Both the position numbers and the translations under genes were made by a program. DNA of 64,000 bases, taken from contig JAUCBJ010007057.1 in NCBI GenBank assembly GCA_032718475.1, forward strand, positions 1-64,000, read 5' to 3'. Position 1 is the first letter of the stretch, and every line of letters starts with the position of its first letter. The stretch is from Nemertoderma westbladi (Eukaryota; Animalia; Xenacoelomorpha). Of the stretch, positions 3,111 to 49,689 are shown piece by piece. Under the pieces are notes generated by a model, which worked only from the letters and a program-made list of their open reading frames with translations, was not told where the DNA came from and ran no database searches.

Positions 3111-3640
3111 AGCGCGTTGGAGAATGTATTTCAACCAAATATGTGCGTAAATTTCTCAGGAGCATTAATCCGAGTGACATCCAGTCTTACAACTTAATAA
3201 ACTTTATCCGTCAAGACCCTGCCTATGGAGACTTATTCGTCAACTCACACCCTGAGTTACAAGAGGTATATCGACGGCCTTACGAGTATCGAGCCCGCGA
3301 ACGCGAGTTAGAAAGAACCATTAAACCAAGGAAGTTTCTAACTGCCTATGGTCCACCCACGGCCCTCGTTCAGACCACTCGTAAAGGACCCGTAAGAGCG
3401 GCTGTCTTGAAACGAGCTCTCAAAGCCGTTAGACCCCTCTCCCCGGACGTTGATGTCCATCAACCCGGTACTTCGACCGGCGGATATACCGATCGCAATC
3501 CCATACCTTCTGACGCAATCATATTGCACCCTTCACCCAGGAGTTATAGCCCTCCTAGTAAAGTGGCTCGCCCCAAAGAGAAAAGGACTCTTGCTAGCTT
3601 CAAAAAACTGCGTAAACGCCGTCCGCGCAAGAAAGACTAA
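2962..3640 (+). pseudogene. 3' remnant of accessory ORF4, copy A (5' part deleted)
   Basis: Translates to WEANADLHC...FASVEQK...KKLRKRRPRKKD*, homologous to the C-terminal ~225 aa of the 594-aa ORF at 37785-39569. Confidence 0.85.
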
Positions 3641-23865: not shown

Positions 23866-25043
23866 TGTAAAGGCTTTTGCGTAATTAGCCGGTTATTTTC
23901 CCCGTAAAGTACTCTGTAGTTGGTTTAGCAGGCATAAAAGGCCGTGTCCTTACTGTACTGTTGTTTTAGAGGACATAAAAGCCATTTCTTCTGTATGTGT
24001 ACTTTAACGGACATGATTAGCAATTTTATGACGCAATGCGCCAAATCCTCTGTAAACAGTGTAGCTACCATGACGACGGCGAACAGCTGATGCTGTACAC
24101 GTGTAGATTTTCTTTGTTCTCTGTGCCTTCTTTGTTCGGTCGACCAATCAGAGCGTTTTTGCCTCTGTGTTGGAGATATATACAAACTCGTGGAGTTGAG
24201 TCAGTATGTGATTTTGTCCACAGCCTACAACACCGGCGTGGAACCTCCGTGTTTCAGTCTTTAGTCCAACATTAGTAGGCTTAATTATAGAACGTATATC
24301 CGTTATCATACCATACCTCACTCACTTAACATATCTCATACCAATTCTGCATTCATAACCATTCATACCTTAAACTTTGTACTGCTATTTACTGTCGGTT
24401 ATTCATTATATTTGTTGATGGAATATTATATTTGGAATACTGATAAACAATCAGACACCCCAATCTTCTTGATATACTAAAGGTTAGAGAGACCGGATAC
24501 ATATAACGATTGCGACTTACATTAAGTGGTTTGAAGTGAATCTAATGCTATTTTATAGGCCCTACACGTATTGTCTGTTGTTCTCCTTATATGTGACTAA
24601 AATTATTGAAGGTCGGCAGATTAGTGTGCAGCATTGTGCAGTATTGTGTATGATCGTGATTGATAACGAAGCATCTCCTAAAGAATGTGCCATATACGTG
24701 AATCTATAGCCATCCCGTTGTGTCTAGTTTAAGTCATAACTCTGTTTATATATTTAGAGCGCCACGTCCTAAAGGAACTGTTAATATTTCCCGAAAGTGA
24801 ATAATATTTGTCAGAGATTATATATATTACGATCAGTCGAATAATACAGTAGGCCTACCCCGCAATACGGTTAGGCTCCCGAATCCAGTCTCCCGGGTAT
24901 ATCCAGCGGGTGAATGATCGCGCATAGACTGGTTTCGGCTAATGTAGTGTATCAAATACTTGTCATAGGCTAAAGACTATCTATCATCTAAAAGACATCC
25001 AAATTTGGCAGGTTAAACTGCTAAAGGTCTGAAAGCGCAAACA
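23866..25043 (+). repeat. 5' LTR of copy B (1178 bp)
   Basis: Direct repeat of 39648-40832 with scattered substitutions and small indels. Confidence 0.96.
24144..24205 (+). promoter_or_regulatory. Putative LTR core promoter (CCAAT box, TATA-like TATATA, Inr-like TCAGT)
   Basis: CCAATCAG at 24144 is conserved in the LTRs of A, B and C. TATATA at 24177 and TCAGT at 24201. The start site is inferred only. Confidence 0.45.
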
Positions 25044-25064
25044 ATAACGGATATAGCTTCTGTA
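25044..25064 (+). other. Non-canonical primer-binding-site position, complementary to LTR 24286-24306
   Basis: ATAACGGATATAGCTTCTGTA versus TATAGAACGTATATCCGTTAT gives 12 contiguous Watson-Crick pairs adjacent to the LTR, 18/21 overall plus one G-U. No TGG start. Confidence 0.65.
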
Positions 25065-25322
25065 TTGCAGTAGGCAATAAAGCTGAAGTACCGGCCAACC
25101 GGTACCCAGTAGGCCTGACTACCTAACCACCCGGACCGGTACCTACAGCAGTACAGGTACAGCAGTATTATTCGATTTTGATTATTATATACCAGTAGGT
25201 CTTAATAATTAATCGGGGACGCCTGGTTTTTATTGGGATTTTACTTAGGCCTATTTCTGTCAGTTTTATTTATTTGTAGGCTAATATTGAGCAGAAGGCG
25301 TGTAAGCCTGCTCAGATTGTAC

Positions 25323-25900
25323 AGACAATTTGTAGGCTGGACTGTTGTCTGACTGTTGTTAAGTCTGAAGAGACTGTAGTGTGTGTAGAGCATATGTCCG
25401 AAAAAGTACTAGTTAGGAAAGTAGGGGCTGCCAGTGCTGTGAGGTGAACCCCCTCGAAAGAATAAGTCGTACTACTCGGTTAGAACGCATAGTAACTAAC
25501 CATTTCGGAGTCTGCATATACTGTAGTGTATTTAGGCTTGATAGTAGTCTGTCAGCGTTTGGTCTGTACTTTGTTTGTGTAGTTTGTATGGGTAGCGTAA
25601 TATTTCTTACTTAGATAATTTGTAGGCTGGATTTTGTCTGGCTGTTGTTAGGTCTTGAGAGATTTCGGTGTGTGTAGAGTGTATGTCCGATAAAGTGCCA
25701 GTTGGGAACGTAGGGGCTTCCAGAGCTGTGAGGTAAACCCCCTCGAAAGAATAAGTCGTCCTACTAGGTTAGGACGCATACTAACTAACCATTTCGGAGT
25801 CTGCATATACCGTAGTTTGTTTGGGCTTGATAGTAGTCTGTCAGTATTTGGTCTGCATTTTGTTTGAGTAGTCTGTACGCGTAGCGTAATATTTATTATT
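25323..25900 (+). repeat. ~290-bp tandem duplication in the 5' leader
   Basis: Units start at 25323 and 25613 (AGAYAATTTGTAGGCTGGA) and stay colinear to TAGCGTAATATTT. Confidence 0.9.
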
Positions 25901-26842
25901 CAGAGTTTATGCGATTATTCGCAACATTCATTCCACAAGTTTATTCCTACAGTAATTGTGCTTGTTATATATACCGTTATAGTTAAACTAACCCCGGTAC
26001 TACATCAGGGCTGCTTGGCGTAGGTAAAGACTGGAGATTTTATGATTTGGTCACTCCGGCAGATACCGTGGTTCTTTTATCTGTTCAAGTATTTTTAACT
26101 ACTGATTATTTGTTGTATAAGTACTTGTACCTAATTTAGGGTTTAGTGTACAGTGCTTTCCGAAGGTGATTAGTGTGTAGGCAGTATATTTGTGTTGTAA
26201 AGTGGTTAATAGGCACATTGGTTCTGGTAGACCGCGGTAATTAACTTCTAGGTAGGAACACTCCGTGATACATAATGTAGTACTTATAGCGATACGGCTA
26301 TAAGTCGTCAGACGGTGGTATTTTCCTATCTGGACAACGCAGTATATTTACTACTACTTATTATTTTCAAATACCGTAGTACCCTGTCCTTTGTAATAAC
26401 CAGATATTCTAACCCTTTGTTAGGCTGGTTAGAAGACTTCTTGTAAAATTACCCTAAAAATTCGTACTTGTAAATTTTGTGTTTATTTAGAGATTGTAAT
26501 CTCAACCCGGATTGTACGTAATTTGTAGTATTAAGTAACTTAGGTAAATTAGAATTATTTGTTTTAGTGTCCAACAAGTAGCACTCCACTGAGAGCGCAC
26601 AGCTTCTGTGTAGTGACTCCCCCCAGAAATAATAACATTTATTTCAAATATTGACAAAACCCATTAAACGGGTATATATATATTATAAATCAACTCAAAG
26701 ATTTATAAATAGTAGGCCTGCCATACAACAATTAGGTCTAAATATCAGTTGGACTACTGCTTAAATAACGGTAATAAAGTAAGTTAAAGTAACCAAGTAA
26801 CCCCTGAAATTTCAGAAATTCAGTTATTCTAAAATAACTGAC

Positions 26843-27090
26843 ATACCGGTATTAACGATAGGCCTATTATATATTTATAAATTTAGGCTGAAATTATACC
26901 GGTATTCTGTAATCAATTCTAGTCTGTAATTATACTTATATATATACTATAAGTGTAAGCTGTATACCGGTATTCACGATAGGCCTATTATATATTTATA
27001 TATACTTGTGCTGGAATTACATACCGGTATTCTGTGACAAACCTAGTCTGTAATAATACTTATATATACTATAAGCATACCGGTATTCTA
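26843..27090 (+). repeat. ~120-bp imperfect tandem repeat with five TACCGGTA palindromes upstream of gag
   Basis: TACCGGTA at 26844, 26897, 26965, 27022 and 27078. The same set is present in copy C at ~62960-63200. Confidence 0.8.
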
Positions 27091-27222
27091 ATATATTATA
27101 TATATATCACGCTACACTGAGTAGCAGTATCGGTAATTAATTACTAGGCTAACAGTGATACTGAATTACTAGACTTGCTTAAACTGTAATATAGCAGTAG
27201 GCATTCAACTGTACAAACGAAC

Positions 27223-30200
27223 ATGTCTGACACAAAGCAAAACCTGTCAGACAGTCTCTTAGATACAACCATCTGTGACCCAGACAGGAGTGTGGAACGT
27301 GTTAGACCGAAGTTCAACTCACCTCCTACTGTAAGAAAGATCATTCCCCCAGTAGTAATATCAGAACCTAGGCTGGTCCAACACCGTTGGTCTGTCATAG
27401 GCACTAGAGCTCAGGTCAAGCGGGACCAAGAAGCAGCGGAACCGCAACAACCCGCGAGCCAAGAACTTATTTCTCAATGGCCCGACAGCTCCAGTAGTGC
27501 GGATACTGTAGAGCTGACACCCGAGCACGGAGCAAAGATGATAGATGCGGTTTATTCGGACCCCCTTCTCATCCTTCCTGCAGCCATACTCACTAGGTTA
27601 TTGATTGCGGTGGAAGAACACCAGATCGATTGGGCGAGAAATAAGCGATCGACCAAAGATAGTTATGCGGGATATACAAGGGAAGAACTGAAGTCTATTG
27701 TCGAGTCGCAATGGAACTTCCCCGGACCCGGACTCCCGTTTGACTTATCGGAAGCTGCCTGGGAAGACATACACAGGATGGGAGTGACAAAGGAAACCAG
27801 CGATCCAGCTGTGTGGAAGAGGTCAGCAGCCGGATACACACAGGGATTCTTCAGCTCCATGGAGCGATTAAAAGAACAACTGTTTCAACAACCCCAAGGA
27901 CCTCAAGAGCAGGGACAGCTGCTTTATCAAGTTAGAGAAAGAATTCTACGAATCAGGCTAATCTTATCGGCCTTTGAGGAGGCTTCTAAAAGAAGACAAG
28001 ACACGTCGTTGCAAGTTGCCGTAAAGACTTGGTTTCAACGGGTGAGTCTCCAGGTTCAAGGAACGGCTCAGTGGAAAGCTCAGCTGGAGGAGCGCTCAAC
28101 CCATGGAGAATCAACAGACGCTACTTTTTCCCAAGTGGAAAGTGAAGCGACGGCAGAGAAACCGCATAAGAGGGATGCCATTGACATCTATCTGTCAGAC
28201 TATCAACGTTCTTTAGGTGATGAAGAGTTCAGGAGAAGGCTGGATGGACTTAGCCCTAATAGTGAAGGAACCCAGCGTGTGTTGGACGCCATCGATGTGG
28301 ATATGAGAGCTGCGAACCAAGCTAAATTTGATGAACAACTCCGCATCGCTAGAGTCCAAGAAGAACAAGTAAAGAAAAAACGTATAGATGACAGAAAGAT
28401 AGCAGCAGCGGCAGCAGCAGAAGCAGAAGCAGAAAGAAAGGCGGCAGAAGCAGCGGCAGAGGCAAAGGCGGCAGCGGCAGAGGCAAAAGCGGCAGAGGCA
28501 AAGGCGGCAGCGGCAGAGGCAAAAGCGGCAGCAGCGGCAGAAGCGGAAAGAAAGATAGCGGTGGCAGAAGCAGAACGGAGAGCGGCTGAAGAGATCGCCC
28601 AACTAGAGTTGGAAAATCTTCAAGAGAGGCAAGATAATTTTAATAAACAGTTAACACCTAGTAATATGCAGATGATGAGTCGATCTACTCCCAAAAGACA
28701 AGGTTATACATCATCTGAGGAAGGCAATACCACCGATCATGAAGGCGGAGGAAATAGATCTCGTCTAAGCAGACGTAGAAGAATATCCCACCGCCAGAAA
28801 CTGCCTGATTTGCCCCCAGCTGTTAGAAAACAACTAAATAACACAAACTTAGGTAGTACAGAACCCACAGACCAAATAATTGAAATAGAAAGACTCCCTA
28901 CTATAGTAGATGAGCCTGAAATAATTAGGCCTGTTCCCGAAGCCACCCCTTCGGTGATAGAGACACCTGTACTCCCTGAACCTACCTCTAAATTCCCTCT
29001 GCACAGCACTAAGCTATCTGTGCCACACAGAACCACCCTTGAAAATGTTCATGTCCTGGACTCCGAGGGAAATATTAATGATTTGTCGCCCGTTGTCCCT
29101 CGTCGGCCCGCTACAACGTTGGCGGCTCCTGCTTCGGTGGTCGAGTGGGTGGATGAGGGACGATGGGGGATGGATCTCCTGCTCGGGCAGATGCAGGAGA
29201 CTGTTCAGCAATTCAAGGGCACAGTAAGGGAAAGTAGGTTAGAGTTGCAAGAAGTGCAGCAAAGAATCGCGCTAGAACATGATAAATTAGTAAATACACA
29301 AAAGGGTATACCACCACCCCCTGTAACAATGTGTCAACCTGTTAGGTCTGAAGTGTTTCATGCGCAAGGTGTGGAGCCTACACGCATATATACTGCTAGC
29401 GAAGTAGAAACTCCTATAGTGAACCCTATTAAGGGTAATTATAGACCTGTTGATAATGATATTCCCTATAGACCTGATCATAATCCGAGAAATTTATATA
29501 CCGATAACTCGATATTGAATAACACGATGGCCCAAGAAAGTTTTACGCGTCAAATGGCTAGAACTGAAGCACGTCAAGCGGTAAAGGTTGGAGAGATCGT
29601 CAAGTTCAATGGAGATGAGATGAAATGGTTACCTTTTAATGAATATTATAAAGATAACATACAGAAATCTGTACTATCTAATGGAGAGAAACTTAGATTC
29701 CTCATCGAGTGCTTGGAAGGATCTCCCAAGTTAATGGCGTTAAAGTTTATTGGACATCCAGACGGATTAAGACAAGTTTGGGATACACTAAACATCAGGT
29801 ATGGTAATAGGAATAACATAGCTAAATATTTGTATGCAAAATTAGTAGCGCCCCGAAAGTTCATTAGCAGCGGGATAATAGAGTTTTCCGATGAGATTCA
29901 AGAGATCTGTAGACAATTAGATTGGTTAGGTAAGTCTCATGAATATCAGAGTTCTATGGTTATTGGAGCTGTGGCTTCTACTTTACCGAAGGGTGGAGTA
30001 GGTACACGCTGGGATAAGAAAGTGTTATATATGATGGAACAACAACGACGAGACCCTACCATGGCTGATCTCATGTCATTCCTAGATGGAGAAGTGCTAT
30101 TACAGCTCCTAAAACAGTCCAGAGAGAAGACACCGGAAAACAAGGTAAGTGAGAAACCCGTCTCTAGGAGAAAGGTAACACCAGTGTGTTATACAGATGA

Positions 30201-33200
30201 CGGCGAAAGCCAGACTTCTCAAGGAGAGGATAGCGGGAAAGACACTGAAAGATCTTATTATGTCAATAAAACGCCTAAAGAACAGGTAAGTAAATTCAAG
30301 TCTCGAACCAATGACAGGAGAGAACAGGTAAGAAAAACTCCTCCTACGTCTCCCAAGAGAATTCAGGTGAGAAAGCCCGAAGAAAGAATGAGTGTGCACA
30401 ATGTTATTCAAAATAAAGTAAGTAACATCAAACCGAAATGTGCGTTATGTGACGGGACCCACCGTTTGAATATGTGTGATGAATTCCTGAAGAAATCATT
30501 AACGGAGAGACGAGAAGTCATGTGGGATAAGCGGTTGTGTTATAATTGCCTCAGACAAGGACACCAACGGCGAACCTGTTACTCCGACACAAGGTGTGCA
30601 AAGTGCGGTGCGAAACATCATATCTTGTTGCACACTGAATTTGAGCGAAACAGCCAGAGTCAGGTAAGTGATTCCGAACTACATGTCCAATTCAGTGATG
30701 TGAACGACACTGACCAAAGTTCTGAGATGGAAGGATTCTATACAGATGAATTCTCCGACGAAGGTGAATCCTGTTACATGATAAATACCGCAGTGTATCG
30801 AGCACTTACGTATGAAAAACACACAGACAGCGACCTCACCCTCACTACTTCTGATCGACAACCATCTTGGAAAGCGCCACCTTCCAATGTAGGAATCCGA
30901 GAATTTCCTGTAGTACAGGTAAGGGTCCACGGACCTAAAAGGAGTTATGTAGTGAACGCCCTCCTTGACTCCGGTAGTACAGGAACATTCATCGACAAAG
31001 AACTAGCCGAAGACATCTTTGCTGGACAACCCAAGTTCCGAACTAAGCTAAACATGTCAGGAATTATGCAGGTTTGGAAATCTACAGTAATCGCGGATTA
31101 TTATGTAGGTGCGTTGTCCACCCCCCAGGATGAACTAGGAGAACATAGTATAAGGTCAGTAAAAAGGGTGGCGATAAAGAACTTCGCTACCACCCAAGTG
31201 GAACCTTATAACTGGGATGAGGACGATTTCACCCAGCAGCTGGAAATACCTAGATTCAACACCGATTACCCTGGAGTGCAAATACTCATCGGTCAAAACG
31301 CGCATGAAGCGCTCGAGACATTGGAGAAACGGCCCGCTCAACCGCAACCACTACAAGCTTATGCGGGAAGAACTAGAGTGGGTTGGTACTTTACTGGCCC
31401 TTCCCGTAGAACTCTCATGGAAAGATTACCGAAAGACCAGGTATGTCAAGTGAGAGAATGGGAAGTCGAGGGCAGTGAGTTAGATGATCTAACTGAGGGA
31501 ACACCATACTCCTCAGATAATGACGATGTCCACCAACTTTTCGATGAGAAGAATACCATTGATCTCCTTAAGGAAAACGAGACTTGGCAAAACCAAGTGA
31601 ACTTATGTCAGCTCCTTCTTCCATCAGAACGAGACGACTATAACGACGAACTTAATGACGTCATTGAACGTTATAATGCCAAGACTCGGGATGAACATGC
31701 CGTACGATTCTTTACTCAAGAGGCTGTAGAGCCCAATTCCTACGATAAGGCCCTATCGGTAGAGGAAGAAAGAGCCAAGCAGATCCAAGAGACAACTACA
31801 CGTTTTCTTAAAGATCAAGGTAGATATGAGATTGGTCTACCTTTCCGAAAGCGAGAACCAAAGTTCGTAAACAACAGACCCTTGGCGGAGAAAAGAATTG
31901 CTCAACTACATCGACGCCTTACGGCAAATTCTTCAGCTAAAGAAATGTATCAAACGCAGTTGAAGAAATTTATTAGCAAGGGATATGCGGAGCTAGTACC
32001 GGAAGAAACACCTATAACTGAGAGAACGTATTATTTAACTCACCATCATGTTCCCAAACCCGGTAAACCCCATGAAGTACGAGTGGTGTTTGACGGCTCC
32101 GCCCTCTATATGGGCCAATCCCTTAATTCTGAATTGTTACCCGGACCCAACTTACTCCAATCCTTGTTGGGAATACTCTTAAGATTAAGACAATATTCAA
32201 TTGCTTTCGCCTCAGATATAGAAGGCATGTTCTTACAAGTCAAGGCGCTGGATAGGGATCGAGATAGCCTACGATTTCTGTGGTGGCCTGAAGGAGACCT
32301 CAACCAGAAACCGGTGGAGTACTGGATGACCATCCAGGCTTTTGGGATAATCTCAAGCCCTTCAAACGCCTGTTCAGTGGTGCGCACCACTGCGGATGAC
32401 AACCGAGACGCCTTCTCTAAAGAGGTGATTGACAACATCAAGCGGGATATATACATGGACGACAATCTAAAGTCCCTTCCATCAGTCGAAGAAGCTATCG
32501 ATGTCGCTAAAGGAACGGTAGAGTGCTTAAAAAGAGGTGGATTTCGATTAACTAAATTCACCATTTCACACACCAATTCGATCCCGGTAGAAGATCGAGG
32601 AGCGAAAGACCTGGATCTAATAAAAGACGATCTCCCAGAAACTAAGACCCTTGGTTTGAAATGGGACACCGAAAGAGATATCCTGTTTTTCCAACTAAAA
32701 CAGCGAGATAATCCAGTTCGGACTAAATGGATTTGTTTAAGTATCCTGAGCACTTATTTCGATCCATTAGGATTTATTAGCCCAGTTATATTGATTGCTC
32801 GGAGTTTAGTACAACAAATGTGGCTTGAAAACCACTCATGGGACGATCCACTTAAGGGAGAATTGTTAAAGAAGTGGATGAAATGGGAAGATTCTCTACC
32901 AGCCATCGAGAACTTTATAATTTCCCGTTCATATTTTGGTCATGTTCTCCCTACGTATTCCTATCAACTCCATGTGTTTGGAGACGCCAGCGATATGGGA
33001 ATAGGTATAGTAGCCTACCTAAGGGTGGAAACTCCGGACAGAATCAAAGTCGCCTTGGTTACCTCTAAGGCACTGATAAACAACAAGTTGAAAGTTCCTC
33101 GAGCGGAGTTAAAGGCGGCGCTATACGCTACAGCCATCGGCCGGAATGTAACAGAACAGATCGACTATCCACTGGAGAAAACTGTCTATTGGACCGACGC

Positions 33201-35328
33201 TTTGCTCGTGTTGGAGTATATAACCAATGAAGTCTGTCAGTTCAGCGTCTTCGTTACCAACAGAGTAGCCATTATACTCAGTCGCACAATGATGGATCAA
33301 TGGAGACATTGCCCCGGAACGATTAATCCAGCAGACATCGCCTCCAGGGGAGCAACTCCACAAGAACTGGTAGATACTCCAGACTGGCTAGGTGGACCCG
33401 ACTTCCTCTACAAAGAAGAAGAAGAATGGCCTCCTCATCTTACTACAGCAGAGATTAGACAGGCCAAGGGAGCGGAGAAAGTCAAACCTAAAACTCGGGC
33501 GAGTAAATCGAAGTTATTCAAACCTATGGTAGATCTGTCTGTACTACATACTTCCGGAGACGACGCTTTGGATCAGAAACCCACAGCCATAGATAAGTCT
33601 ATTGTGGAAATCCGTGAGAAGGATTGGAAATCTGGAATACCAGACGTCTCGCAAGGACTCTCACCTCTTCTGCAGAGAGCGATACATCACTACAGTTCCT
33701 GGAATCGGCTCTGTAAGGCCGTTACATATTTAAAGAGATGTTTTCACCATCACTACTCCGGGATGAAGGCCAAAGGTGATACCGCTCCAATAACATCAGT
33801 GCAGGTCCATGTTATTAAAGATCTTCCCAAATATAAGATATCCGACAGGTTTCTGAAGGAGAAGATCAGTTATCAGGAGCATGAAGAAACCAACAAGCAG
33901 ATGCTGAGACTCCTGCAATGCTATGAGGATTCCGATAAGTATTTCCTGTTGTTGAGAAATCCACAGATGCGCTTAAGGGATCGTTTCTCTAGCACAATGA
34001 TAGATGGGTTGATACGTGTGGGAGGAAGATTAACGAATGCTCCATTATCCTTTGACACTAAATTTCCCATACTCATTAGAAATCTTGAAATACAAGTCAA
34101 GATGATTGTAGACGTTCACAGCAAACTTTATCATGCTGGTAGGGAACGAGTTCTTAGCGAAATTCGAACTCGCTATTATTTTTATAAACCCCGTAGAGCT
34201 CTGAACCAAGTTCTTAGGAACTGCATACCCTGTAGGAAAGCATTCAGTAGGCCTTTAACACAGCGAGAGGCAGAATTACCTAGGGAACGAGTAAGCTTCT
34301 ATGAACCACCCTTTACTAATACCGGTGTGGATTTATTTGGCCCTATTGAAGTATATCGTGCTAGGACTATAGTCAAGAGATGGTGTGTCATCTTTGTTTG
34401 TATGACTTGTAGAGCTATCCATCTCGACATGGTGAACGATTTATCTACCAACAGCTTTCTATTAAGCTTACGACGACAGATCGCTCGCTTTGGCACTAGT
34501 AACACGATGAGATCTGATAAGGGAACAAACTTCATTGGTGCCAACAATGAAATCAAAGCTTACGTCAAAGATTGGAACCAAAGACAGGTGGACGATCAGC
34601 TACGAGTAACAGCGTCTAGCTGGACCTTCAACGCCGCCGACGCCCCTTGGTGGGGAGGAAGTTGGGAGAGATTAATAAGAAGTGTGAAGACAGCATTTCA
34701 CTTTATAGTGCCTTGCCGCGCGTATCTCACCAACGAACTTTTGCGGACGTTAATGGAGGAAATCGCCGCCTATCTCAACGAGAGACCGCTTATGCCAGTC
34801 TCATCGAGTCCCGATTCCCTGGAAGCGCTAACACCCGCGCATTTCCTACTGAAGAAACCTGTAGCCATGCTCCCACAATCGGAAATCACAGACGGAGACG
34901 AATACTGCCGGCAAACTTGGCAACTCATGCAGTTGTTATCCCGTCGTTTCGCTGACCATTTCGAAAAACATTATCTGCCCACGCTACAACTTCGAACTAA
35001 GTGGTTTGCGCAGCAAGAAAACGTCAGCGCTGGAGACATGGTTCTTATTGTGGATGTAGATCTTCCACGTAAGCGGTGGCAGACAGGTCGTATCATCGAG
35101 ACTCACATCTCGGATGATGGTTTGGTGCGATCGGTAGAACTCGTCGTCATGCGACGTAACGTCAAGAAACCGGGAATTGTCTTCGAGACACAGCAGCTCA
35201 ATCGCCCAGTTGGTCGTTTATGTTTACTGGAAAGAGACAGAGAACTCTCCGGAAACTATGGGAGGCAAGATACTCTTCCCACGACCACCTCCCTAATCCA
35301 ACAAACATCTAGGGACTCCCCAACTTAA
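27223..35328 (+). CDS. gag-pol: BEL/Pao Gag-Pol polyprotein, 2701 aa
   Basis: DUF1759-like FNGDEMKWLPF. BEL triple knuckle (CALCDGTHRLNMC, CYNCLRQGHQRRTC, CAKCGAKHHILLH). Protease LLDSGS. RT RVVFDGS, SDIEGMFLQV and YMDD. Pao RNase H HVFGDAS, PRAEL and NPADIASRG. Integrase H..H..CIPC, GVDLFGP, SDKGTNF and WERLI. Confidence 0.97.
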   Translation: MSDTKQNLSDSLLDTTICDPDRSVERVRPKFNSPPTVRKIIPPVVISEPRLVQHRWSVIGTRAQVKRDQEAAEPQQPASQELISQWPDSSSSADTVELTPEHGAKMIDAVYSDPLLILPAAILTRLLIAVEEHQIDWARNKRSTKDSYAGYTREELKSIVESQWNFPGPGLPFDLSEAAWEDIHRMGVTKETSDPAVWKRSAAGYTQGFFSSMERLKEQLFQQPQGPQEQGQLLYQVRERILRIRLILSAFEEASKRRQDTSLQVAVKTWFQRVSLQVQGTAQWKAQLEERSTHGESTDATFSQVESEATAEKPHKRDAIDIYLSDYQRSLGDEEFRRRLDGLSPNSEGTQRVLDAIDVDMRAANQAKFDEQLRIARVQEEQVKKKRIDDRKIAAAAAAEAEAERKAAEAAAEAKAAAAEAKAAEAKAAAAEAKAAAAAEAERKIAVAEAERRAAEEIAQLELENLQERQDNFNKQLTPSNMQMMSRSTPKRQGYTSSEEGNTTDHEGGGNRSRLSRRRRISHRQKLPDLPPAVRKQLNNTNLGSTEPTDQIIEIERLPTIVDEPEIIRPVPEATPSVIETPVLPEPTSKFPLHSTKLSVPHRTTLENVHVLDSEGNINDLSPVVPRRPATTLAAPASVVEWVDEGRWGMDLLLGQMQETVQQFKGTVRESRLELQEVQQRIALEHDKLVNTQKGIPPPPVTMCQPVRSEVFHAQGVEPTRIYTASEVETPIVNPIKGNYRPVDNDIPYRPDHNPRNLYTDNSILNNTMAQESFTRQMARTEARQAVKVGEIVKFNGDEMKWLPFNEYYKDNIQKSVLSNGEKLRFLIECLEGSPKLMALKFIGHPDGLRQVWDTLNIRYGNRNNIAKYLYAKLVAPRKFISSGIIEFSDEIQEICRQLDWLGKSHEYQSSMVIGAVASTLPKGGVGTRWDKKVLYMMEQQRRDPTMADLMSFLDGEVLLQLLKQSREKTPENKVSEKPVSRRKVTPVCYTDDGESQTSQGEDSGKDTERSYYVNKTPKEQVSKFKSRTNDRREQVRKTPPTSPKRIQVRKPEERMSVHNVIQNKVSNIKPKCALCDGTHRLNMCDEFLKKSLTERREVMWDKRLCYNCLRQGHQRRTCYSDTRCAKCGAKHHILLHTEFERNSQSQVSDSELHVQFSDVNDTDQSSEMEGFYTDEFSDEGESCYMINTAVYRALTYEKHTDSDLTLTTSDRQPSWKAPPSNVGIREFPVVQVRVHGPKRSYVVNALLDSGSTGTFIDKELAEDIFAGQPKFRTKLNMSGIMQVWKSTVIADYYVGALSTPQDELGEHSIRSVKRVAIKNFATTQVEPYNWDEDDFTQQLEIPRFNTDYPGVQILIGQNAHEALETLEKRPAQPQPLQAYAGRTRVGWYFTGPSRRTLMERLPKDQVCQVREWEVEGSELDDLTEGTPYSSDNDDVHQLFDEKNTIDLLKENETWQNQVNLCQLLLPSERDDYNDELNDVIERYNAKTRDEHAVRFFTQEAVEPNSYDKALSVEEERAKQIQETTTRFLKDQGRYEIGLPFRKREPKFVNNRPLAEKRIAQLHRRLTANSSAKEMYQTQLKKFISKGYAELVPEETPITERTYYLTHHHVPKPGKPHEVRVVFDGSALYMGQSLNSELLPGPNLLQSLLGILLRLRQYSIAFASDIEGMFLQVKALDRDRDSLRFLWWPEGDLNQKPVEYWMTIQAFGIISSPSNACSVVRTTADDNRDAFSKEVIDNIKRDIYMDDNLKSLPSVEEAIDVAKGTVECLKRGGFRLTKFTISHTNSIPVEDRGAKDLDLIKDDLPETKTLGLKWDTERDILFFQLKQRDNPVRTKWICLSILSTYFDPLGFISPVILIARSLVQQMWLENHSWDDPLKGELLKKWMKWEDSLPAIENFIISRSYFGHVLPTYSYQLHVFGDASDMGIGIVAYLRVETPDRIKVALVTSKALINNKLKVPRAELKAALYATAIGRNVTEQIDYPLEKTVYWTDALLVLEYITNEVCQFSVFVTNRVAIILSRTMMDQWRHCPGTINPADIASRGATPQELVDTPDWLGGPDFLYKEEEEWPPHLTTAEIRQAKGAEKVKPKTRASKSKLFKPMVDLSVLHTSGDDALDQKPTAIDKSIVEIREKDWKSGIPDVSQGLSPLLQRAIHHYSSWNRLCKAVTYLKRCFHHHYSGMKAKGDTAPITSVQVHVIKDLPKYKISDRFLKEKISYQEHEETNKQMLRLLQCYEDSDKYFLLLRNPQMRLRDRFSSTMIDGLIRVGGRLTNAPLSFDTKFPILIRNLEIQVKMIVDVHSKLYHAGRERVLSEIRTRYYFYKPRRALNQVLRNCIPCRKAFSRPLTQREAELPRERVSFYEPPFTNTGVDLFGPIEVYRARTIVKRWCVIFVCMTCRAIHLDMVNDLSTNSFLLSLRRQIARFGTSNTMRSDKGTNFIGANNEIKAYVKDWNQRQVDDQLRVTASSWTFNAADAPWWGGSWERLIRSVKTAFHFIVPCRAYLTNELLRTLMEEIAAYLNERPLMPVSSSPDSLEALTPAHFLLKKPVAMLPQSEITDGDEYCRQTWQLMQLLSRRFADHFEKHYLPTLQLRTKWFAQQENVSAGDMVLIVDVDLPRKRWQTGRIIETHISDDGLVRSVELVVMRRNVKKPGIVFETQQLNRPVGRLCLLERDRELSGNYGRQDTLPTTTSLIQQTSRDSPT

Positions 35329-36762
35329 CAACGGCTGGAGTGGGTGTATGACTATATTTTATATTTGTTTTATTCTTTTATATTTATGTATATATTATTA
35401 TGTAATTTTATTATAATCGTTTTCTTTAATTTTATTTAGTAGAATGTTATTTTAGCGATTATTTAGTAGATTAGTGCAATATATATTCGCGTTTATTACT
35501 TAATTACTTATACATTATATATTTAGTGCAACGGCGAGAAATAATTCTTTTTCTCCTTCCTTACTGTCCGTATTACATTACAAATACGTAACTACAGTAA
35601 GATGAAATGTCCGTACTTATTAAAGTACAATAAAGCTCCTACTATATTTAAGTATTATTGGTAGGCAGAGTATTAGGAATGCAAAATTCAGATCCTCGTG
35701 TCTCGGCTAAACCAAGCTCTGGGTAGACCTTGGAAACGACTTGCCTCTTCTCACTGACATTGCTTCGTGCGATATTGCTCTCATACCGTATATTAAATAA
35801 TACATATAGTAGCGTGATGTCCCTTTAACAGTAGCGTACAACGCAAATAAATCTGTTAAACCCTTTGACCATCTGTAATTCTCGTCGATTAAGATATCGC
35901 GGCACCCACCGATATACTTGAAAGACAAATTCTAGAATCAGTGGTTAACGTCCCCAGACAAGTTCTGGAATAAACTGGTGCCCATCCTAAATATTAATTA
36001 TTAATATTTACAAAATCTGTCAAATTTTAGATCCTTTAAAATTCTAGTCGATTAAGATATCGTAGCACTTACCGATACTCTTAAAAGGACAAAATTCCTA
36101 GAATCTAGGATCCCAGTCCCCAGACACATTCTGGGATAAAATTACGTCTATTTAACATTAAATAATAAAAATTACGGGAATAAATTTAAATTCATATATT
36201 TCAATGAATTTAATAAATTGTCATTTTATACAATTTATAACATTCCCAAAATTCCATTAATTAATAGATCATGGGAGCGGAGATTCACTCTATTAAGTGT
36301 ATTGGTGTGCGAGAATCTCCAATATATAGTCAATAGCCGATAAAATTCATAAAATCATATATAGAGAGGATATTGACAATTAAAGAATTACTATTAAATA
36401 GCATCCCAGATCTGTATGCATGAGAATTACCCTAATTCTACCGCTAGCTTTCCATAATGTCACCATGGCAACAACCACGCTAGAATTAGAAGTGAGTTAA
36501 AAGAACAATAGAAGGCTTGCCCCATTGAATAGCATAGGGAATAAATAGCGCACTGCTAGTATCCAAGGATACATAATAAATAAAGTGACATTCTGGAAGG
36601 TACTGACTAACGGACAAATGGCCCGAATGTGTACAGTTTATGGCAGTTGTGTTGAATTTGTGCGTTCATAGGTGAATGTTACTGCTAAAGTGTGTTTACA
36701 GTAGCTAGTCGCAATTGTGAAAGTAACCCTAACTCTCCAGAAAGAACCTGAAGTACATCTAA

Positions 36763-36919
36763 GCCTTTGGGACGGACAGTGGAGTGACTTGTGCCGGTTA
36801 TCGTTGTCGTTGTGTAGCTACATCGTTGGCGAAAGCACAGCGACGACGGTACATCGGCGCTGAGGATCTTGCGCTGTCCGGGGGCAAAAGAGGGGTAGGC
36901 AGCGACGCCCGCTAGCCTA
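36763..36919 (+). promoter_or_regulatory. Conserved structured RNA element upstream of ORF2, copy B
   Basis: 16-bp stem TATCGTTGTCGTTGTG/CACAGCGACGACGGTA (with G-U pairs) inside CGGACAG/CTGTCCG, followed by hairpin TAGGC-AGCG/CGCT-A-GCCTA. Confidence 0.55.
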
Positions 36920-36960
36920 ATATATAAACTCATTATAATATTGATAAACTCATAGCAGAT

Positions 36961-37403
36961 ATGACTGAGTTGATAGAAGATGATCTTAGTATCAGGGAGC
37001 GATATACTCTACCTTTACAAGCGTTTGTCGATAGCTTGATACGCGGCGACGCTGGTCCAACTACTACGGAGGATGATGGTCGTTATATCGAACCGCCAAT
37101 GTTCCCGGAGCAACTTACGCGTGAATTGGATTATAGAAAGTTCACCGCTCGCTATATGCATCGTAATGGTACGTATATGGACTTCTTAACTACTGGCCAT
37201 CCTATCGATTTACACGATACGGACGATGTAGATACCGAAAGGGAAAGGGTTTTATTTAAATATCATACCCAGCGGAGTCGGCACGATGAACCGAGAATGG
37301 AACACGAGAATTCTATTCGAAATCAACTCGAAAGATAGAATGTGGAAGAAGGCTTGTAAAGACAAATAGAGGAGAACCACTGGAGAAGAGACATGGGTTA
37401 ATG
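36961..37403 (+). pseudogene. Accessory ORF2 of copy B, truncated (premature TAG, then deletion joining to an ORF3 remnant)
   Basis: 125 aa match copy A ORF2. After TGGAAGAA (37343-37350) the sequence matches copy A 2877-2930. Confidence 0.85.
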
Positions 37404-37784
37404 TCCAGGGTCCATAATGTGAATAGTTTTCCCCAGGGCACGGGTGCTCGCGGGCGGTCTCCTTCGGGAGGCTGTAATTTTCTCTTCCTTCATCGTTTTC
37501 CTGTAATTATTGTGATCAGTGTCACAATTAAAAGGCAAGAATGAATGATGACGTGACGGAAAACATGTCCATTGTGGTATCTTATGGATACTACCATATA
37601 TCCTCCCTCCTCTTTACTTCCCTTATCCCTCTATACATCGCTATTGAAAATACAACATACTTCGTCCCACCTTCTCTTCCCAACGCGCTCGGAGCTTTGG
37701 GAGACGATCGACCGATCATTGTCGTATCGTGGTATTGATCATACCGCCTCTTAATAAACCTCCCATCCCTTACTATTAATCTGG

Positions 37785-39569
37785 ATGCTCATATTGGAGA
37801 ACATTCCATACCCTTTCGTTGATACTCAGCTGATTGCTCCCTGGGCAGAAGGCCGAGGTTTCTTCCGCACAATGTATGCCAATACACCCAGCAGCATTAC
37901 TAAAGTACAACGAACCTCCATCGGACATCTTGCCTTTCAAGAATACGGATGGAATTTCAAGGTTGGAAATCCTATAAATTACCAACAAGTATATGGAGAT
38001 CATTATTCTCGTTTATACTTTGATGGACCATTGACTGCACCTGGCGCCGTGTATAGCTTTATGAGTGTTCCACTTCGTCCCTCCTTAGCTATATACACGA
38101 TCTTTGAAAACGCAGCACTTGCCGGTTGGCTAGCCGATGTGTGCAGTCGTACCATACGCGCCCATCCATTAATACTTGGAACCAAACTCGCCAAGTTAGA
38201 TGAACACAATAAATTCATCCGCTTCGAATGTTTCAGGCGCTTTCTGACTCCGTTCCGTAACGTTGATAGTCAGTTCAAGGACCGCGCTCTGACCAAACTC
38301 AGCCTAAGAGACTCAGCTGCGGAGAAGCTAAACAGCGCGGGATTTGCTCTCTTTCAGGACGTTTGTATACAGAACTTACATTCATCTGTTATACAAAGAC
38401 CCCGAATACCCACAGGTTATTCTGTCGTGGAAGTTCAGACAGTGGGTCCGCTTGCGGAGACAGCCGCACCTACCTCAGCTATGCAATTGGAAGACGAACC
38501 AATCTGCTTAGAGTCTGAAGCGATCCAGCCTACAGCGCCCCGGAGCAGCGATAACGATTACGTCTTGGAGTGGTATCAAGGTCCACAATGTCTCACCGCA
38601 TACGATTATCGACACGCCAACTATGTTTCTCGAAAACGTTGTCGATTATGCGCATCGAGAGACCATTTCACCCCTATGGACTCAGACGTACCCTGCTCCT
38701 ATTTCCACGAACAGCCGATGATGGAGATCTATTGTGCGTATTGCAGACTTAATAACTCGCATATTTTTGCAGTCTGCCCCCAATTTATGACCCAATGTCA
38801 CCACTGTCAACTTAAAGGACATGCCAGTTATAATTGCCCCTTTAACCGCGATTTAGAAAGCGTAGATGAGATGATTACCCTGCGCTACATCCGAGCTTGG
38901 GAAGCGAACGCGGATTTACATTGTGAGGCCCGCCATCGCTACTACCCTGGACGCTCTTACGAGGGAGTTTACGCGTTCCATCCTTATTTATTCGCGTCTG
39001 TGGAACAAAAAACACGCACACCGAGTTACGAACTAATGAAGCGTGTTGGTGAGTGTATTTCCACCAAATTTGTTCGAAAATATCTTAGGAACGTCAATCC
39101 TAATGATATTACTTCATACCATTTGATCAATTACATCCGTCAAGACCCTGAGTATGGCGATTTATTTATCAACTCGCACCCTGAGTTACAGGAAGTATCT
39201 CGACGGCCCTACGAATATCGAGCCCGAGAACGCGAGCTGGAAAGAACCATTAAACCAAGGAAGTTTCTCACCACTCACGGTCCGCCTACCGCCATTGTCC
39301 AGACGACCCGTCAAGGACCCGTAGGAGCTGCTGTCCTAAGACGCGCCCTAAAGGCCGTTAGACCTCGCTCCACTGAAGTTGATATCGATCAACCAGGTAC
39401 CTCGACCGGAGGATACACCGATCGTAATCCTAAACCTTCTGATGCAATTGTATTGCACCCTTCACCCAGGAGCTACAGCCCTCCTAGTAAAGTGGCTCGC
39501 CCCAAAGAGAAAAGGACTCTTGCTAGCCTCAAAAAACTGCGTAAACGCCGTCCGCGTAAGAAAGACTAA
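37785..39569 (+). CDS. Retrotransposon accessory ORF4, 594 aa, triple CCHC-type zinc-knuckle protein with basic C-terminus
   Basis: Long open ORF with motifs CRLCASRDH(x9)C, CAYCRLNNSHIFAVC and CHHCQLKGHASYNC, ending KKLRKRRPRKKD. Substitutions versus the copy A remnant are conservative. No signal peptide or TM segment is evident. Confidence 0.85.
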   Translation: MLILENIPYPFVDTQLIAPWAEGRGFFRTMYANTPSSITKVQRTSIGHLAFQEYGWNFKVGNPINYQQVYGDHYSRLYFDGPLTAPGAVYSFMSVPLRPSLAIYTIFENAALAGWLADVCSRTIRAHPLILGTKLAKLDEHNKFIRFECFRRFLTPFRNVDSQFKDRALTKLSLRDSAAEKLNSAGFALFQDVCIQNLHSSVIQRPRIPTGYSVVEVQTVGPLAETAAPTSAMQLEDEPICLESEAIQPTAPRSSDNDYVLEWYQGPQCLTAYDYRHANYVSRKRCRLCASRDHFTPMDSDVPCSYFHEQPMMEIYCAYCRLNNSHIFAVCPQFMTQCHHCQLKGHASYNCPFNRDLESVDEMITLRYIRAWEANADLHCEARHRYYPGRSYEGVYAFHPYLFASVEQKTRTPSYELMKRVGECISTKFVRKYLRNVNPNDITSYHLINYIRQDPEYGDLFINSHPELQEVSRRPYEYRARERELERTIKPRKFLTTHGPPTAIVQTTRQGPVGAAVLRRALKAVRPRSTEVDIDQPGTSTGGYTDRNPKPSDAIVLHPSPRSYSPPSKVARPKEKRTLASLKKLRKRRPRKKD

Positions 39570-39638
39570 CTGTTTAGAGTATTTTTATATTTTAGAAACT
39601 GTGATTTGTTATATTTTATAGACTTAAATCCCATTTTC

Positions 39639-39647
39639 TGGGAGCGG
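39639..39647 (+). other. Polypurine-tract position (TGGGAGCGG) abutting the 3' LTR
   Basis: The same sequence lies immediately before TGTAAA in all three copies. Confidence 0.7.
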
Positions 39648-40832
39648 TGTAAAGGCTTTTGCGTAATTAGCCGGTTATTTTCCCCGTAAAGTACTCTGTA
39701 GTTGGTTTAACAGGCATAAAAGGCCGTGTCCTTACTGTACTGTTGTTTTAGAGGACATAAAAGCCATTTCTTCTGTATGTGTACTTTAACGGACATGATT
39801 AGCAATTTTATGACGCAATGCGCCAAATCCTCTGTAAACAGTGTAGCTACCATGACGACGGCTAACAGCTGATGCTGTACACGTGTAGCTTTTCTTTGTT
39901 CTCTGTGCCTTCTTTGTTCGGTCGACCAATCAGAGCGTTTTTTGCCTCTGTGTTGGAGATTGTATATAGAAACTCGTGGAGTTGAGTCAGTATGTGATTT
40001 TGTCCACAGCCTACAACACCGGCGTGGAACCTCCGTGTTTCAGTCTTTAGCTCCAACATTAGTAGGCTTAATTATAGAACGTATATCCGTTATCATCACT
40101 CATACCTCACTCACTTAACATATCTCATACCAATTCTGCATTCATAACCATTCATACCTTAAACTTTGTACTGCTATTTACTGTCGGTTATTCATTATAT
40201 TTGTTGATGGAATATTATATTTGGAATACTGATAAACAATCAGACACCCCAATCTTCTTGATATACTAAAGGTTAGAGAGACCGGATACATATAACGATT
40301 GCGACTTACATTAAGTGGTTTGAAGTGAATCTAATGCTATTTTATAGGCCCTACACGTATTGTCTGTTGTTCTCCTTATATGTGACTAAAATTAGTGAAG
40401 GTCGGCAGATTAGTGTGCAGCATTGTGCAGTATTGTGTATGATCGTGATTGATAACGAAGCATCTCCTAAAGAATGCGCCATATACGTGAATCTATAGCC
40501 ATCCCGTTGTGTCTAGTTTAAGTCATAACTCTGTTTATATATTTAGAGCGCCACGTCCTAAAGGAACTGTTAATATTTCCCGAAAGTGAATAATATTTGT
40601 CAGAAATTATATATATTACGATCAGTCGAATAATACAGTATGCCTACCCCGCAATACGGTTAGGCTCCCGAATCCAGTCTCCCGGGTATATCCAGCGGGT
40701 GAATGATCGCGCATAGACTGGTTTCGGCTAATGTAGTGTATCAAATACTTGTCATAGGCTAAAGACTATCTATCATCTAAAAGACATCCAAATTTGGCAG
40801 GTTAAACTGCTAAAGGTCTGAAAGCGCGAACA
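39648..40832 (+). repeat. 3' LTR of copy B (1185 bp)
   Basis: Direct repeat of 23866-25043. Confidence 0.96.
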
Positions 40833-41689: not shown

Positions 41690-42001
41690 ATTAAATATTT
41701 ACGTATACAAATACAGTACATTATCGTTATTTTGTACCTTTAACATGTATAAATTCACAGCTATTATATTTACTTATTAAATTTGTTAAATTATTGAAAT
41801 AGATACTTTTATCGCAGAAATAAATATATTAAATGCCAAAGAAAAAACTGGTGTACCACTAAAGAATAAAATAATATAAACGTTAATGTGAAAGCTGCCT
41901 AAAATATATTCTGGCTTCCTTTAGCGCATCCTTTACCTTCATTTGGAGACCAATCAATATAAACTGTAACGTAACTAACCTAACCCATCAAGCTCAGGCA
42001 A

Positions 42002-45119: not shown

Positions 45120-45141
45120 TATACATATTACTAATTCGTTT

Positions 45142-45400: not shown

Positions 45401-45423
45401 CTTGGGGATTGGAATACTTTGGA

Positions 45424-49636: not shown

Positions 49637-49689
49637 TATCTGAGTTGAGTACAGTACATTATATAATAAATTTAGTCAACTGGGCAACA

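Follow-up and report, generated by a model that had tools for sequence, protein, structure and literature searches.

A BEL/Pao retrotransposon family with three additional genes under purifying selection between pol and the 3' LTR

Results

A three-gene cassette downstream of gag-pol

The window, i.e. the whole 64,000-nucleotide stretch of DNA analysed, contains three copies (A, B and C; Table 1) of a BEL/Pao family of LTR retrotransposons, and we conclude with high confidence that this family has three extra selected genes between pol and the 3' LTR. In all copies, gag-pol is followed by a spacer and then by the sense-strand reading frames ORF2, ORF3 and ORF4 in constant order and on a constant strand. 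The first-pass annotation had proposed three related copies, each carrying all three ORFs; the copies, the order and the strand were borne out, but no copy has the full set intact. Copy A has a whole ORF2, a partial ORF3 and only the final 223 codons of ORF4. In copy B, ORF2 ends at a stop after 125 codons, ~50 bp of ORF3 are left and ORF4 is whole. In copy C all three are broken (ORF2 has 2 indels and 2 stops; ORF3 lacks a start codon and has 8 indels and 4 stops; just the last ~50 codons of ORF4 are present). Because the losses differ from copy to copy, the cassette is a composite read across copies. Gag-pol is open in copies B and C despite the cassette losses, a copy-specific pattern on which the first-pass annotation had not remarked.

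Adding the 913 bp kept only in copy A to the 16,967 bp of copy B gives an intact element of at least 17.9 kb, in agreement with the proposed ~18 kb or more. The description of the family as giant stands to this extent but not as a claim of exceptional size, given that an automated survey has BEL/Pao elements of up to 22.8 kb. The spacer, proposed to be ~1.5 kb, is 1,455, 1,632 and 1,656 bp long in A, B and C, respectively. The ORFs are not explained by chance: none of 1000 shuffles of positions 35329-39647 yielded a sense ORF of at least 270 aa, the longest being 173. The family appears to be of very high copy number, with 40,219 matching contigs from one public run. When contig depth is summed, it falls below the level of the spacer at positions 37338-37671 and in ORF4, but this depth does not equal copy number.

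Table 1. Features of the three element copies in the window
Feature	Copy	Position	Strand	Description
Element	A	1-4986	+	BEL/Pao LTR retrotransposon
ORF2	A	1566..2378	+	270 aa, whole; acidic, C-terminal Cys/His cluster
ORF3	A	2397..2961	+	~188-190 aa before deletion; Pro-rich start, then charged helical-type sequence
ORF4, final 223 codons	A	2969..3640	+	open
Element	B	23866-40832	+	BEL/Pao LTR retrotransposon; 16,967 bp
5' LTR	B	23866..25043	+	1,178 bp, TG...CA
Leader	B	25044..27222	+	2.2 kb, includes 289-bp tandem duplication
gag-pol	B	27223..35328	+	single open frame, 2,701 aa: DUF1759, triple Cys-His box, protease, RT, RNase H, integrase
Spacer	B	35329..36960	+	non-coding; between-copy divergence below synonymous sites
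ORF2	B	36961..37338	+	cut after 125 codons, decaying
ORF3 remnant	B	37343..37394	+	behind microhomology deletion
390-bp stretch	B	37395..37784	+	unique to B within the window: ORF3 end or ORF3-ORF4 intergenic
ORF4	B	37785..39569	+	594 aa, whole in B only
ORF4 zinc knuckles	B	38640..38837	+	three, CCHC-type, aa 286-304, 317-331, 338-351; then helical segment common to P0002
ORF4 basic tail	B	39462..39566	+	15 Lys/Arg among the 35 C-terminal residues; present in all three copies
Purine-rich tract	B	39640..39647	+	short, 5' of 3' LTR, identical in A, B and C
3' LTR	B	39648..40832	+	1,185 bp
Element	C	beyond 64000 to 50282	-	BEL/Pao LTR retrotransposon
Cassette remains	C	51541..53057	-	broken ORF2, broken ORF3, last ~50 codons of ORF4
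gag-pol	C	54714..62825	-	single open frame

BEL/Pao membership and non-coding regions

The Pol motifs of copy B follow the BEL/Pao order PR-RT-RH-IN, and its Gag has the triple Cys-His box (motifs at aa 1073, 1106 and 1125) that is defined as a BEL/Pao Gag trait in the accessible part of PMC554778. Peptidase_A17 (E 6e-35), DUF5641 (E 3e-19) and DUF1759 (E 1e-10) were all detected above the Pfam cut-off. These three domains, the LLDSGS and LIG protease motifs, YxDD, DAS, the TG...CA LTRs and the single gag-pol frame are shared with canonical BEL/Pao elements (PMC8742986; for Sinbad, PMC554778 in the part available). No relatives of Pol were found in the viral contigs scanned. Judged by its LTRs, which are 99.2% alike (9 mismatches in 1,178 aligned bases plus 7 gap bases), copy B is a recent insertion; it is flanked by a 5-bp target-site duplication (4/5 bases alike) within a satellite. 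Between copies the LTRs match at only 71-82%. No TGG-starting site, as in a canonical primer-binding site, is found in the ~155 bases behind the B 5' LTR, the sole 5' end in the window.

Leader and spacer contain no small conserved ORF of at least 30 aa with an ATG common to the copies, the Rfam search gave two matches at chance level only and the tRNA search gave none. A TATA-like box lies at position 36921, 40 bp upstream of ORF2, within the constrained spacer of B.

Selection on ORF2, ORF3 and ORF4

The dN/dS values are far below 1 for all three ORFs, i.e. 0.15 (CI 0.08-0.31) and 0.17 (0.11-0.26) for ORF2, 0.20 (CI 0.10-0.31) for ORF3 and 0.11 (CI 0.06-0.17) for the ORF4 tail, next to 0.12 for gag-pol, 0.87-1.98 for off-frame controls and 0.65-1.05 for the spacer, demonstrating that ORF2, ORF3 and ORF4 are under purifying selection. 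The excess of third-position changes noticed earlier in the ORF4 tail was confirmed, with 22, 12 and 78 differences at codon positions 1, 2 and 3 over 223 codons. Because a dS of 0.43-1.19 has built up between copies with few amino-acid changes, this selection acted within the family. In comparisons with copy C, the last ~50 codons of ORF4 gave a dN/dS of 0.44-0.66 with wide intervals, and these codons may be kept for RNA signals adjoining the purine tract. As only copy B keeps the knuckle region, selection in that region is read from the public contigs only. Among the best-supported contig entries, gaps are absent from 11 of the 12 pieces listed within ORF4 but occur in all seven listed spacer-only pieces of more than 100 nt, and 8/10 listed differences in ORF4 are synonymous versus 2/8 in the cut ORF2 of B.

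Hydropathy and relationships among the ORFs

The proposed lack of a signal peptide or TM anchor holds for the preserved parts of the ORFs (highest 19-residue hydropathy 0.46, 1.08 and 1.31) but is limited to these, because the C-terminus of ORF3 is missing from all copies. The proposal that this BEL/Pao lineage has several genes under selection downstream of pol, none of them resembling env in the preserved parts, is supported. Over its first 180 aa, ORF3 contains no signal peptide, cysteine or N-glycosylation site, and neither these residues nor ORF2 or ORF4 resemble viral fusogens. One frame of the 390-bp stretch of copy B has a borderline hydrophobic run (1.83) that is not assignable to the ORF3 frame. 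We rejected ORF2 and ORF3 as a single broken gene, the intervening stop being common to A and C, and a comparison gave no signal for the three ORFs as paralogs.

ORF4 contains zinc knuckles and has a single distant relative

ORF4 contains three CCHC-type zinc knuckles, the first with an atypical 9-residue spacing, and ends in a basic tail that is likely a nuclear or nucleolar signal; both had been overlooked in the first-pass annotation. The knuckle domain alone matches Pfam zf-CCHC_3 at E 7e-4, below the curated cut-off. Among 1.84 billion proteins, the sole relative of ORF4 is P0002 (locus L001), a weak match (E 3.2e-4, 27-30% identity over ORF4 aa 219-406). In both proteins, a helix and a conserved aromatic motif come after the three knuckles; unlike ORF4, P0002 carries this module twice, behind an unrelated N-terminal domain, and is a singleton on an LTR-like contig of 3,685 bp without pol. 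In a shuffle test picked after the alignment had been viewed, the likeness beyond the knuckles was reached by 0/2000 shuffles for repeat 2 and failed for repeat 1 (422/2000). An ORF4/P0002 profile had 12 matches, exclusively to RNA-binding knuckle proteins, including LIN28 (E 0.002), Air2 (E 0.03) and retroviral nucleocapsids. Look-alikes in the atlas include AIR2-like clusters at 0.76-0.77, and all score below 0.9, i.e. at the level of leads.

Searches limited to proteins of 0.55-1.75 times the query length returned no homologs for ORF4 (0/3,326 candidates) or ORF2 (0/237), and the P0002 knuckle region matched only itself among 549 candidates. The scans of viral and metagenome contigs gave no relatives of ORF2, ORF4, Pol or the ORF4/P0002 domain alignment, and ORF3 had no match there or in Pfam, PHROGs and PDB. 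In the searches run, none of the three ORFs matched a named protein beyond generic knuckles. Neither Pfam nor PDB gave an exonuclease or esterase (DEDDy/GDSL) match for ORF2-4. The predicted folds are poor (pLDDT 32.6 for ORF4 alone and 53.8 for the domain alignment); with the predicted domain fold Foldseek found no match at E 0.001, and the best VIA Z was 4.2. An origin of the ORF4 knuckles from the element's own nucleocapsid was rejected, the likeness being at the Cys/His level only (3/500 shuffles) and the spacing different. ORF2 and ORF3 gave no signal of relatedness to P0002, and an exonuclease domain suspected by eye in the P0002 N-terminus was unsupported.

Deletions recur in other copies

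In copy B, a deletion at about 37342 with 8 bp of microhomology removed about 913 bp, comprising the end of ORF2 and most of ORF3. Its junction is bridged by a diverged public contig (X1 record 4, 17 other letters), as is the deletion junction of copy C (X5 record 26, 40 other letters). That X5 is an RNA run is only a guess, and the contigs are uninformative on splicing, starts and levels. Because the deletion junctions recur in other copies, the pattern suggests that the cassette products act in trans. That they are dispensable most of the time fits replicating deletion forms equally well.

Discussion

Of the big LTR groups, BEL/Pao has received the least study, and it has been described as simple, with env as the sole regular addition. 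The element described here does not match the canonical belpaovirid plan: it has four genes and at least 17.9 kb versus one to three genes and 4.2-10 kb, a descriptive range, in the ICTV profile (PMC8742986), its extra genes lack env features in the parts preserved, and no canonical primer-binding site was seen in copy B. Extra coding between pol and the 3' LTR is shared with the env-bearing elements roo, Tas, Cer7 and the mosquito Anakin-type BELs with a chuvirus glycoprotein; in the accessible parts of the sources (PMC13524379, PMC554778, PMC7642597) these extras are membrane glycoproteins of viral origin, whereas ORF2-4 have no signal peptide or anchor in their preserved parts. In the bdelloid Juno and Vesta elements, the env position is likewise taken by soluble genes other than env, which individual families have gained or lost, but these elements are Gypsy-like and have a single ORF3 with a recognisable DEDDy or GDSL enzyme, neither of which was detected in ORF2-4 (PMC5408684, accessible part). 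DrFV-1, with three ORFs after pol, the fish foamy-like proviruses, planarian Burro and plant Retand and Ogre are likewise large LTR elements with several function-unassigned extra ORFs; they belong to the Retroviridae or Metaviridae, not to BEL/Pao, and we claim no sequence likeness to ORF2-4 (PMC2774666, PMC6431247, PMC11963269, in the parts available). Non-env extra ORFs are already known in other LTR clades, and what would be new is a BEL cassette of three: no BEL/Pao element with several non-env ORFs was found in the accessible literature, which excludes Repbase, Dfam, GyDB and most subscription papers. On a smaller scale, BEL additions other than env would already exist in Cer13, which has an exonuclease-like region, and in Cer7, which has an extra ORF. 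If the interpretation is true, the step from simple to complex genomes seen in retroviruses and a few Gypsy lineages also occurred in BEL/Pao.

We tentatively propose, at a confidence somewhat short of probable, that ORF2-4 are accessory RNA-handling genes that would function in a CERV/Rev-like manner. CERV, a Cys-rich accessory protein located in the nucleus, is required for exporting the RNA of Cer1, a Gypsy element of C. elegans; compared by description, it is similar to the cassette in having no outside homologs, a Cys-rich putative zinc finger and a basic nuclear signal, and it differs in belonging to a Gypsy element and in being encoded by one spliced gene that shares sequence with Gag and has a C4-type finger (PMC10309623, accessible part). 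In this model, ORF4 would work in the nucleus as an RNA-binding helper on the element's own very long unspliced RNA and would promote the export or stability of this RNA in the way that CERV serves Cer1, and ORF2 with its Cys/His cluster and ORF3 with its Pro-rich, charged helical sequence would be partners in the same job. The three genes might be expressed from sub-genomic RNAs, as the TATA-like box and the constrained spacer hint, and acting in trans they would allow copies lacking the genes to be replicated with protein from whole copies. The boldest form of this idea, in our view unlikely as a whole, is that the family would be the first 'complex' belpaovirus, with a trans-acting, non-env three-gene cassette driven by an internal promoter of its own, an RNA-binding domain of three knuckles that has had no name so far and that unrelated mobile elements have in common, and a few whole copies serving a swarm of cassette-deleted copies that make their own Gag-Pol. 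ORF4 and P0002 mark a zinc-knuckle module without a name whose RNA target is testable, and the natural deletion series with open gag-pol lets the need for the genes in cis or in trans be asked.

Alternatively, and with lower probability, the cassette might counter host silencing or RNA decay, ORF4 mimicking or jamming the Air2/LIN28-type knuckle adaptors of exosome, uridylation or piRNA pathways and so protecting all copies in trans. Air2 and LIN28 lead the profile matches, AIR2-like clusters appear in the atlas, the family is of very high copy number and, in the accessible part of PMC5408684, bdelloid LTR elements have RNA-processing ORF3s; however, the matches depend on Cys/His spacing, the atlas scores stay below 0.9 and the exonuclease-like P0002 N-terminus is unsupported. 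Moreover, counter-defence genes often evolve fast, yet the dN/dS values of the ORFs are at the low level of gag-pol.

It is improbable that ORF4 serves as an additional nucleocapsid or as part of the particle, helping to package or chaperone the unusually long genome together with ORF2 and ORF3 in a structural role. Tandem knuckles spaced as in nucleocapsids and a genome well above the ICTV range would suit such a function, but Gag has its own triple Cys-His box, the basic tail suggests a nuclear site, and copy B, 17 kb long and without ORF2 and ORF3, inserted recently by the measure of its LTRs.

Still more doubtful is a cassette for cell-to-cell spread in which ORF3 is a membrane or fusion protein that stands in for env, its anchor lying in the lost C-terminus. 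The env position of the cassette, the missing ORF3 end and the borderline hydrophobic run in B would be in keeping with this, and elements that lose env-like genes are known to go on copying. However, that run is not assignable to the ORF3 frame, 180 aa of ORF3 lack env hallmarks and ORF2 and ORF4 look soluble. Small non-env fusogens are known in Gypsy elements (bioRxiv 2025.03.14.642691), but ORF3 is longer than FAST-like proteins of 63-107 aa.

Equally doubtful and already weakened is the explanation that the ORFs are hitchhiking, decaying passengers, i.e. a nested element or captured host genes selected before capture: no copy has kept the cassette complete, the ORFs have a higher CpG observed/expected ratio (1.06-1.49) than gag-pol does (0.82) and the P0002 contig lacks pol, but no host homolog was found, there is no sign of a nested insertion (positions 35329-39647 contain no 12-bp inverted repeat, and the ORFs have a constant position in three copies with strongly diverged LTRs), synonymous changes accumulated between copies with few amino-acid changes, and the GC3 of the ORFs (0.41-0.48) is like that of gag-pol (0.43) and unlike that of a nearby host gene (0.32).

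The structure of the element and its cassette

The window, repeat-rich DNA in which a Cys-loop channel gene marks an animal host, holds three related LTR-element copies (A, B and C; see the table). Their gag-pol is a single open frame of ~2,700 aa in B and in C that matches Peptidase_A17 (E 6e-35), DUF5641 and DUF1759 in Pfam and has the BEL/Pao motif order, i.e. triple Cys-His box, LLDSGS/LIG, YMDD, DAS and integrase motifs, as defined in the part of PMC554778 used here. The LTRs of B (1,178 and 1,185 bp) differ at 9 aligned bases and 7 gap bases. The TGG-starting primer-binding site missing from B would reflect either a local loss in this copy or unusual priming. In places, agreement of the A LTR with B and C drops to 71-77%, and the mosaic pattern of copy A suggests recombination between subfamilies.

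The first-pass annotation described three further sense ORFs (ORF2, ORF3 and ORF4) between the spacer that follows gag-pol and the 3' LTR. Their sizes, common order and strand are borne out, and the ORFs are not due to chance, given that 0 of 1000 shuffles of 35329-39647 yielded a sense ORF of 270 aa. The statement that all three copies carry ORF2-4 was worded too strongly: the ORFs are real, but no single copy has all three. In A, ORF2 is complete (270 aa), ORF3 breaks off at ~188 aa and ORF4 is reduced to its final 223 codons; B retains 125 codons of ORF2, ~50 bp of ORF3 and the whole of ORF4 (594 aa), and shows a ~913-bp deletion at an 8-bp microhomology and 390 bp without a match in A or C; and in C, ORF2 has two indels and two stops, ORF3 has eight indels, four stops and no start codon, and ~50 codons of ORF4 are left. 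The end of ORF3 is absent from A, B and C. Individual copies repeatedly lose parts of the cassette and gag-pol remains open. A reading of ORF2 and ORF3 as one broken gene was rejected, because both A and C have the intervening stop; they are therefore separate genes. The full-length element would come to at least 17,880 bp, in agreement with the earlier estimate of roughly 18 kb or more when intact.

Features of the window, of ORF4 and of contig L001
Feature	Position	Strand	Remarks
Copy A	1-4986	+	3' part only
Mosaic part of A	3488-4986		92.7% match to C over final 245 internal bases
Minisatellites	7453-8398; 47860-48838; 49216-49639		units of 17, 18 and 12 bp
Non-LTR retrotransposon RT region	10792-12581	-	frameshifted; RVT_1, DUF6451
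Cys-loop ligand-gated channel gene	13358-14653	-	intronless; glycine/GABA-A type (Pfam E 3e-40); alone among repeats
62-bp satellite around B	17769-23865; 40833-41693		98 units before, 14 after
Copy B	23866-40832	+	both LTRs; 16,967 bp
Stretch after 5' LTR of B	25044-25200		no TGG-starting primer-binding site, despite LTRs 99.2% alike
Duplication in leader of B	25323-25898		289-bp tandem, 86% alike
Gag N-terminal extension	27223-29600		~800 aa ahead of DUF1759; unusually long
Ala/Glu-rich repeat in this extension	28401-28546
Best-conserved spacer part	35529-35930		91-99 of 100 bases, B vs C; non-coding
Duplicated ~130-bp unit	35877-36140		in B and C; single in A
Nested inverted repeats	42762-46068		652-bp arms at 91%; inner palindrome 44228-45121
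Copy C	from beyond 64000 to 50282	-
Three ORF4 knuckle motifs	aa 286-304, 317-331, 338-351
P0002 gene and following features (L001)	124-2025, 2057-2232, 3390-3685		gene, then purine run and stretch with 8-bp inverted repeat at its bounds; acidic ORF 1.1 kb farther on runs off contig

Selection and variation among copies

dN/dS was obtained from pairwise counts between copies with bootstrap intervals. The values are 0.15 (A-B, 129 codons) and 0.17 (A-C, 266 codons) for ORF2, 0.20 for ORF3 (A-C, 167 codons), 0.11 for the ORF4 tail (B-A, 223 codons) and 0.12 for gag-pol (B-C, 2,690 codons), and all five intervals end at or below 0.31. ORF2 between B and C, both decaying here, gave 0.35 (0.19-0.67), and the last ~50 ORF4 codons compared with C gave 0.44 and 0.66, both intervals including 1. 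With 0.11-0.20 for ORF2-4, far below the controls (0.87-1.98 in six off-frame and 0.65-1.05 in six spacer readings), the earlier description of these genes as selected holds: selection has preserved three soluble-looking genes in this lineage as strongly as gag-pol. The spacer diverges by ~0.10-0.15, less than the synonymous sites of gag-pol (0.39, B-C), and is therefore constrained too. A TATA-like box lies 40 bp ahead of ORF2 in B, with a close variant in C and a weaker one in A. The best-conserved spacer part, kept better than synonymous sites, is possibly an RNA or promoter element.

The stretch is present, whole or partly, in six sequencing runs from three organisms; in one run 40,219 contigs match 35000-40000. 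Contig depth is not a measure of copy number. Of 30 bins across 35000-40000, all are covered in runs X1 and X3, 28 in X5 and 8 in X6. Among the best 32 of 51,585 pieces, 11 of 12 inside ORF4 are gap-free and all seven spacer-only pieces >100 nt have gaps; among the best 40 of 489 difference rows, changes are synonymous in 8/10 cases in ORF4, 5/7 in pol and 2/8 in the truncated ORF2 of B. The deletion junction of B is spanned by a contig that differs at 17 letters. A 736-nt contig of organism B (an organism code, not the copy), differing at 40 letters, spans the junction of C; another contig departs from C at its junction and continues for 327 nt. At several ORF3 frameshift sites of C the contigs disagree, and the share that departs from C ranges by run from a few percent to almost all. 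Bridged and unbridged junctions and mixed frameshift sites therefore indicate that there are lineages of deleted as well as of less deleted forms.

The ORF proteins and a relative of ORF4

In the preserved parts of ORF2-4 no 19-residue hydropathy exceeds 1.31; the claim that signal peptides and TM anchors are lacking stands for these parts, but the ORF3 end, lost in every copy, lies outside this reading. ORF2, an acidic protein, carries a Cys/His cluster at its C-terminus, and ORF3 is Pro-rich, then charged; neither had relatives in the searches run (for ORF3, Pfam, PHROGs, PDB and viral contigs). The knuckle domain of ORF4 matches zf-CCHC_3 below the curated cut-off (E 7e-4), and the protein has 15 Lys/Arg among its last 35 aa. 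A word-index search of proteins 0.55-1.75x the query length found no relative of ORF4, and HMMER against 1.84 billion representatives matched one protein only (E 3.2e-4), P0002, an unnamed singleton encoded on the 3,685-bp contig L001, in which the three knuckles, helix and aromatic motif of ORF4 are present twice. Using a region picked after the alignment was seen, post-knuckle ORF4 beats 2000/2000 shuffles against P0002 repeat 2 and is not significant against repeat 1 (422/2000 shuffles). With an E limit of 10, a profile of the ORF4/P0002 stretches matched 12 solved sequences. All of them belong to RNA-binding proteins with knuckles: LIN28, Air2 and retroviral nucleocapsids. The predicted folds are poor (pLDDT 32.6 for ORF4, 53.8 for the domain alignment), and fold searches with these low-pLDDT models gave no clear match. 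L001 has LTR-like hints after the P0002 gene and no pol; this gene may be the last of another LTR element.

Comparison with known elements and possible function

Smaller non-env additions occur in Cer13 and Cer7. The ICTV belpaovirid plan comprises one to three genes in 4.2-10 kb (PMC8742986), in contrast to gag-pol plus three ORFs in at least 17,880 bp here. Size alone is no record, because the automated survey in PMC3118150, in the part considered, gives a maximum BEL/Pao length of 22,762 bp (median 7,382), and its set may include long elements with extra ORFs. The extra BEL/Pao ORFs reported in the relevant parts of PMC13524379, PMC554778 and PMC8220671 are env-like. Non-env extras are described, in the sections drawn on, for bdelloid elements with DEDDy and GDSL ORF3s (PMC5408684), DrFV-1 with three unknown ORFs (PMC2774666), Burro and Ogre (PMC6431247) and a FAST-like sORF2 (bioRxiv 2025.03.14.642691), but in LTR groups other than BEL/Pao. 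As to whether the architecture had already been described, no BEL/Pao element with several non-env ORFs was found in the literature searched, Repbase, Dfam and GyDB being outside this scope. With its accessory cassette, this BEL/Pao element is a complex one, and the proposal of a 'complex' BEL lineage with several selected accessory genes is sound; any regulatory role, like the function of the cassette in general, is putative.

Combining these data, we tentatively suggest that ORF2-4 would be expressed from sub-genomic RNAs and that ORF4 would be a nuclear RNA-binding protein, the likeliest target of which would be the 17-18 kb unspliced RNA of the element itself. ORF4 would support export or stability of this RNA, as the part of PMC10309623 used here describes for CERV, the nuclear accessory protein of the Gypsy element Cer1 of C. 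elegans, and would act in trans, allowing cassette-deleted copies to ride along. Taken jointly, we give these steps somewhat less than an even chance. Counter-silencing by mimicry of Air2/LIN28-type adaptors, proteins found among the profile matches, is unlikely and yet the strongest rival. The retroviral nucleocapsids in the same set would fit an auxiliary nucleocapsid, which we regard as improbable. For an env substitute, the anchor would have to lie at the ORF3 end that all copies lack, the preserved parts being of low hydropathy; this reading is still more doubtful. Equally doubtful is passenger DNA, to which the CpG content of the ORFs, exceeding that of gag-pol, would point, but selection accrued between element copies, the position is fixed among copies, inverted termini are absent and ORF GC3 resembles that of gag-pol.

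Other features of the window

The stop-free frames in the 17-, 18- and 12-bp minisatellites are not genes and are produced by the repeats themselves. The nested inverted repeats are likely MITE or foldback elements.
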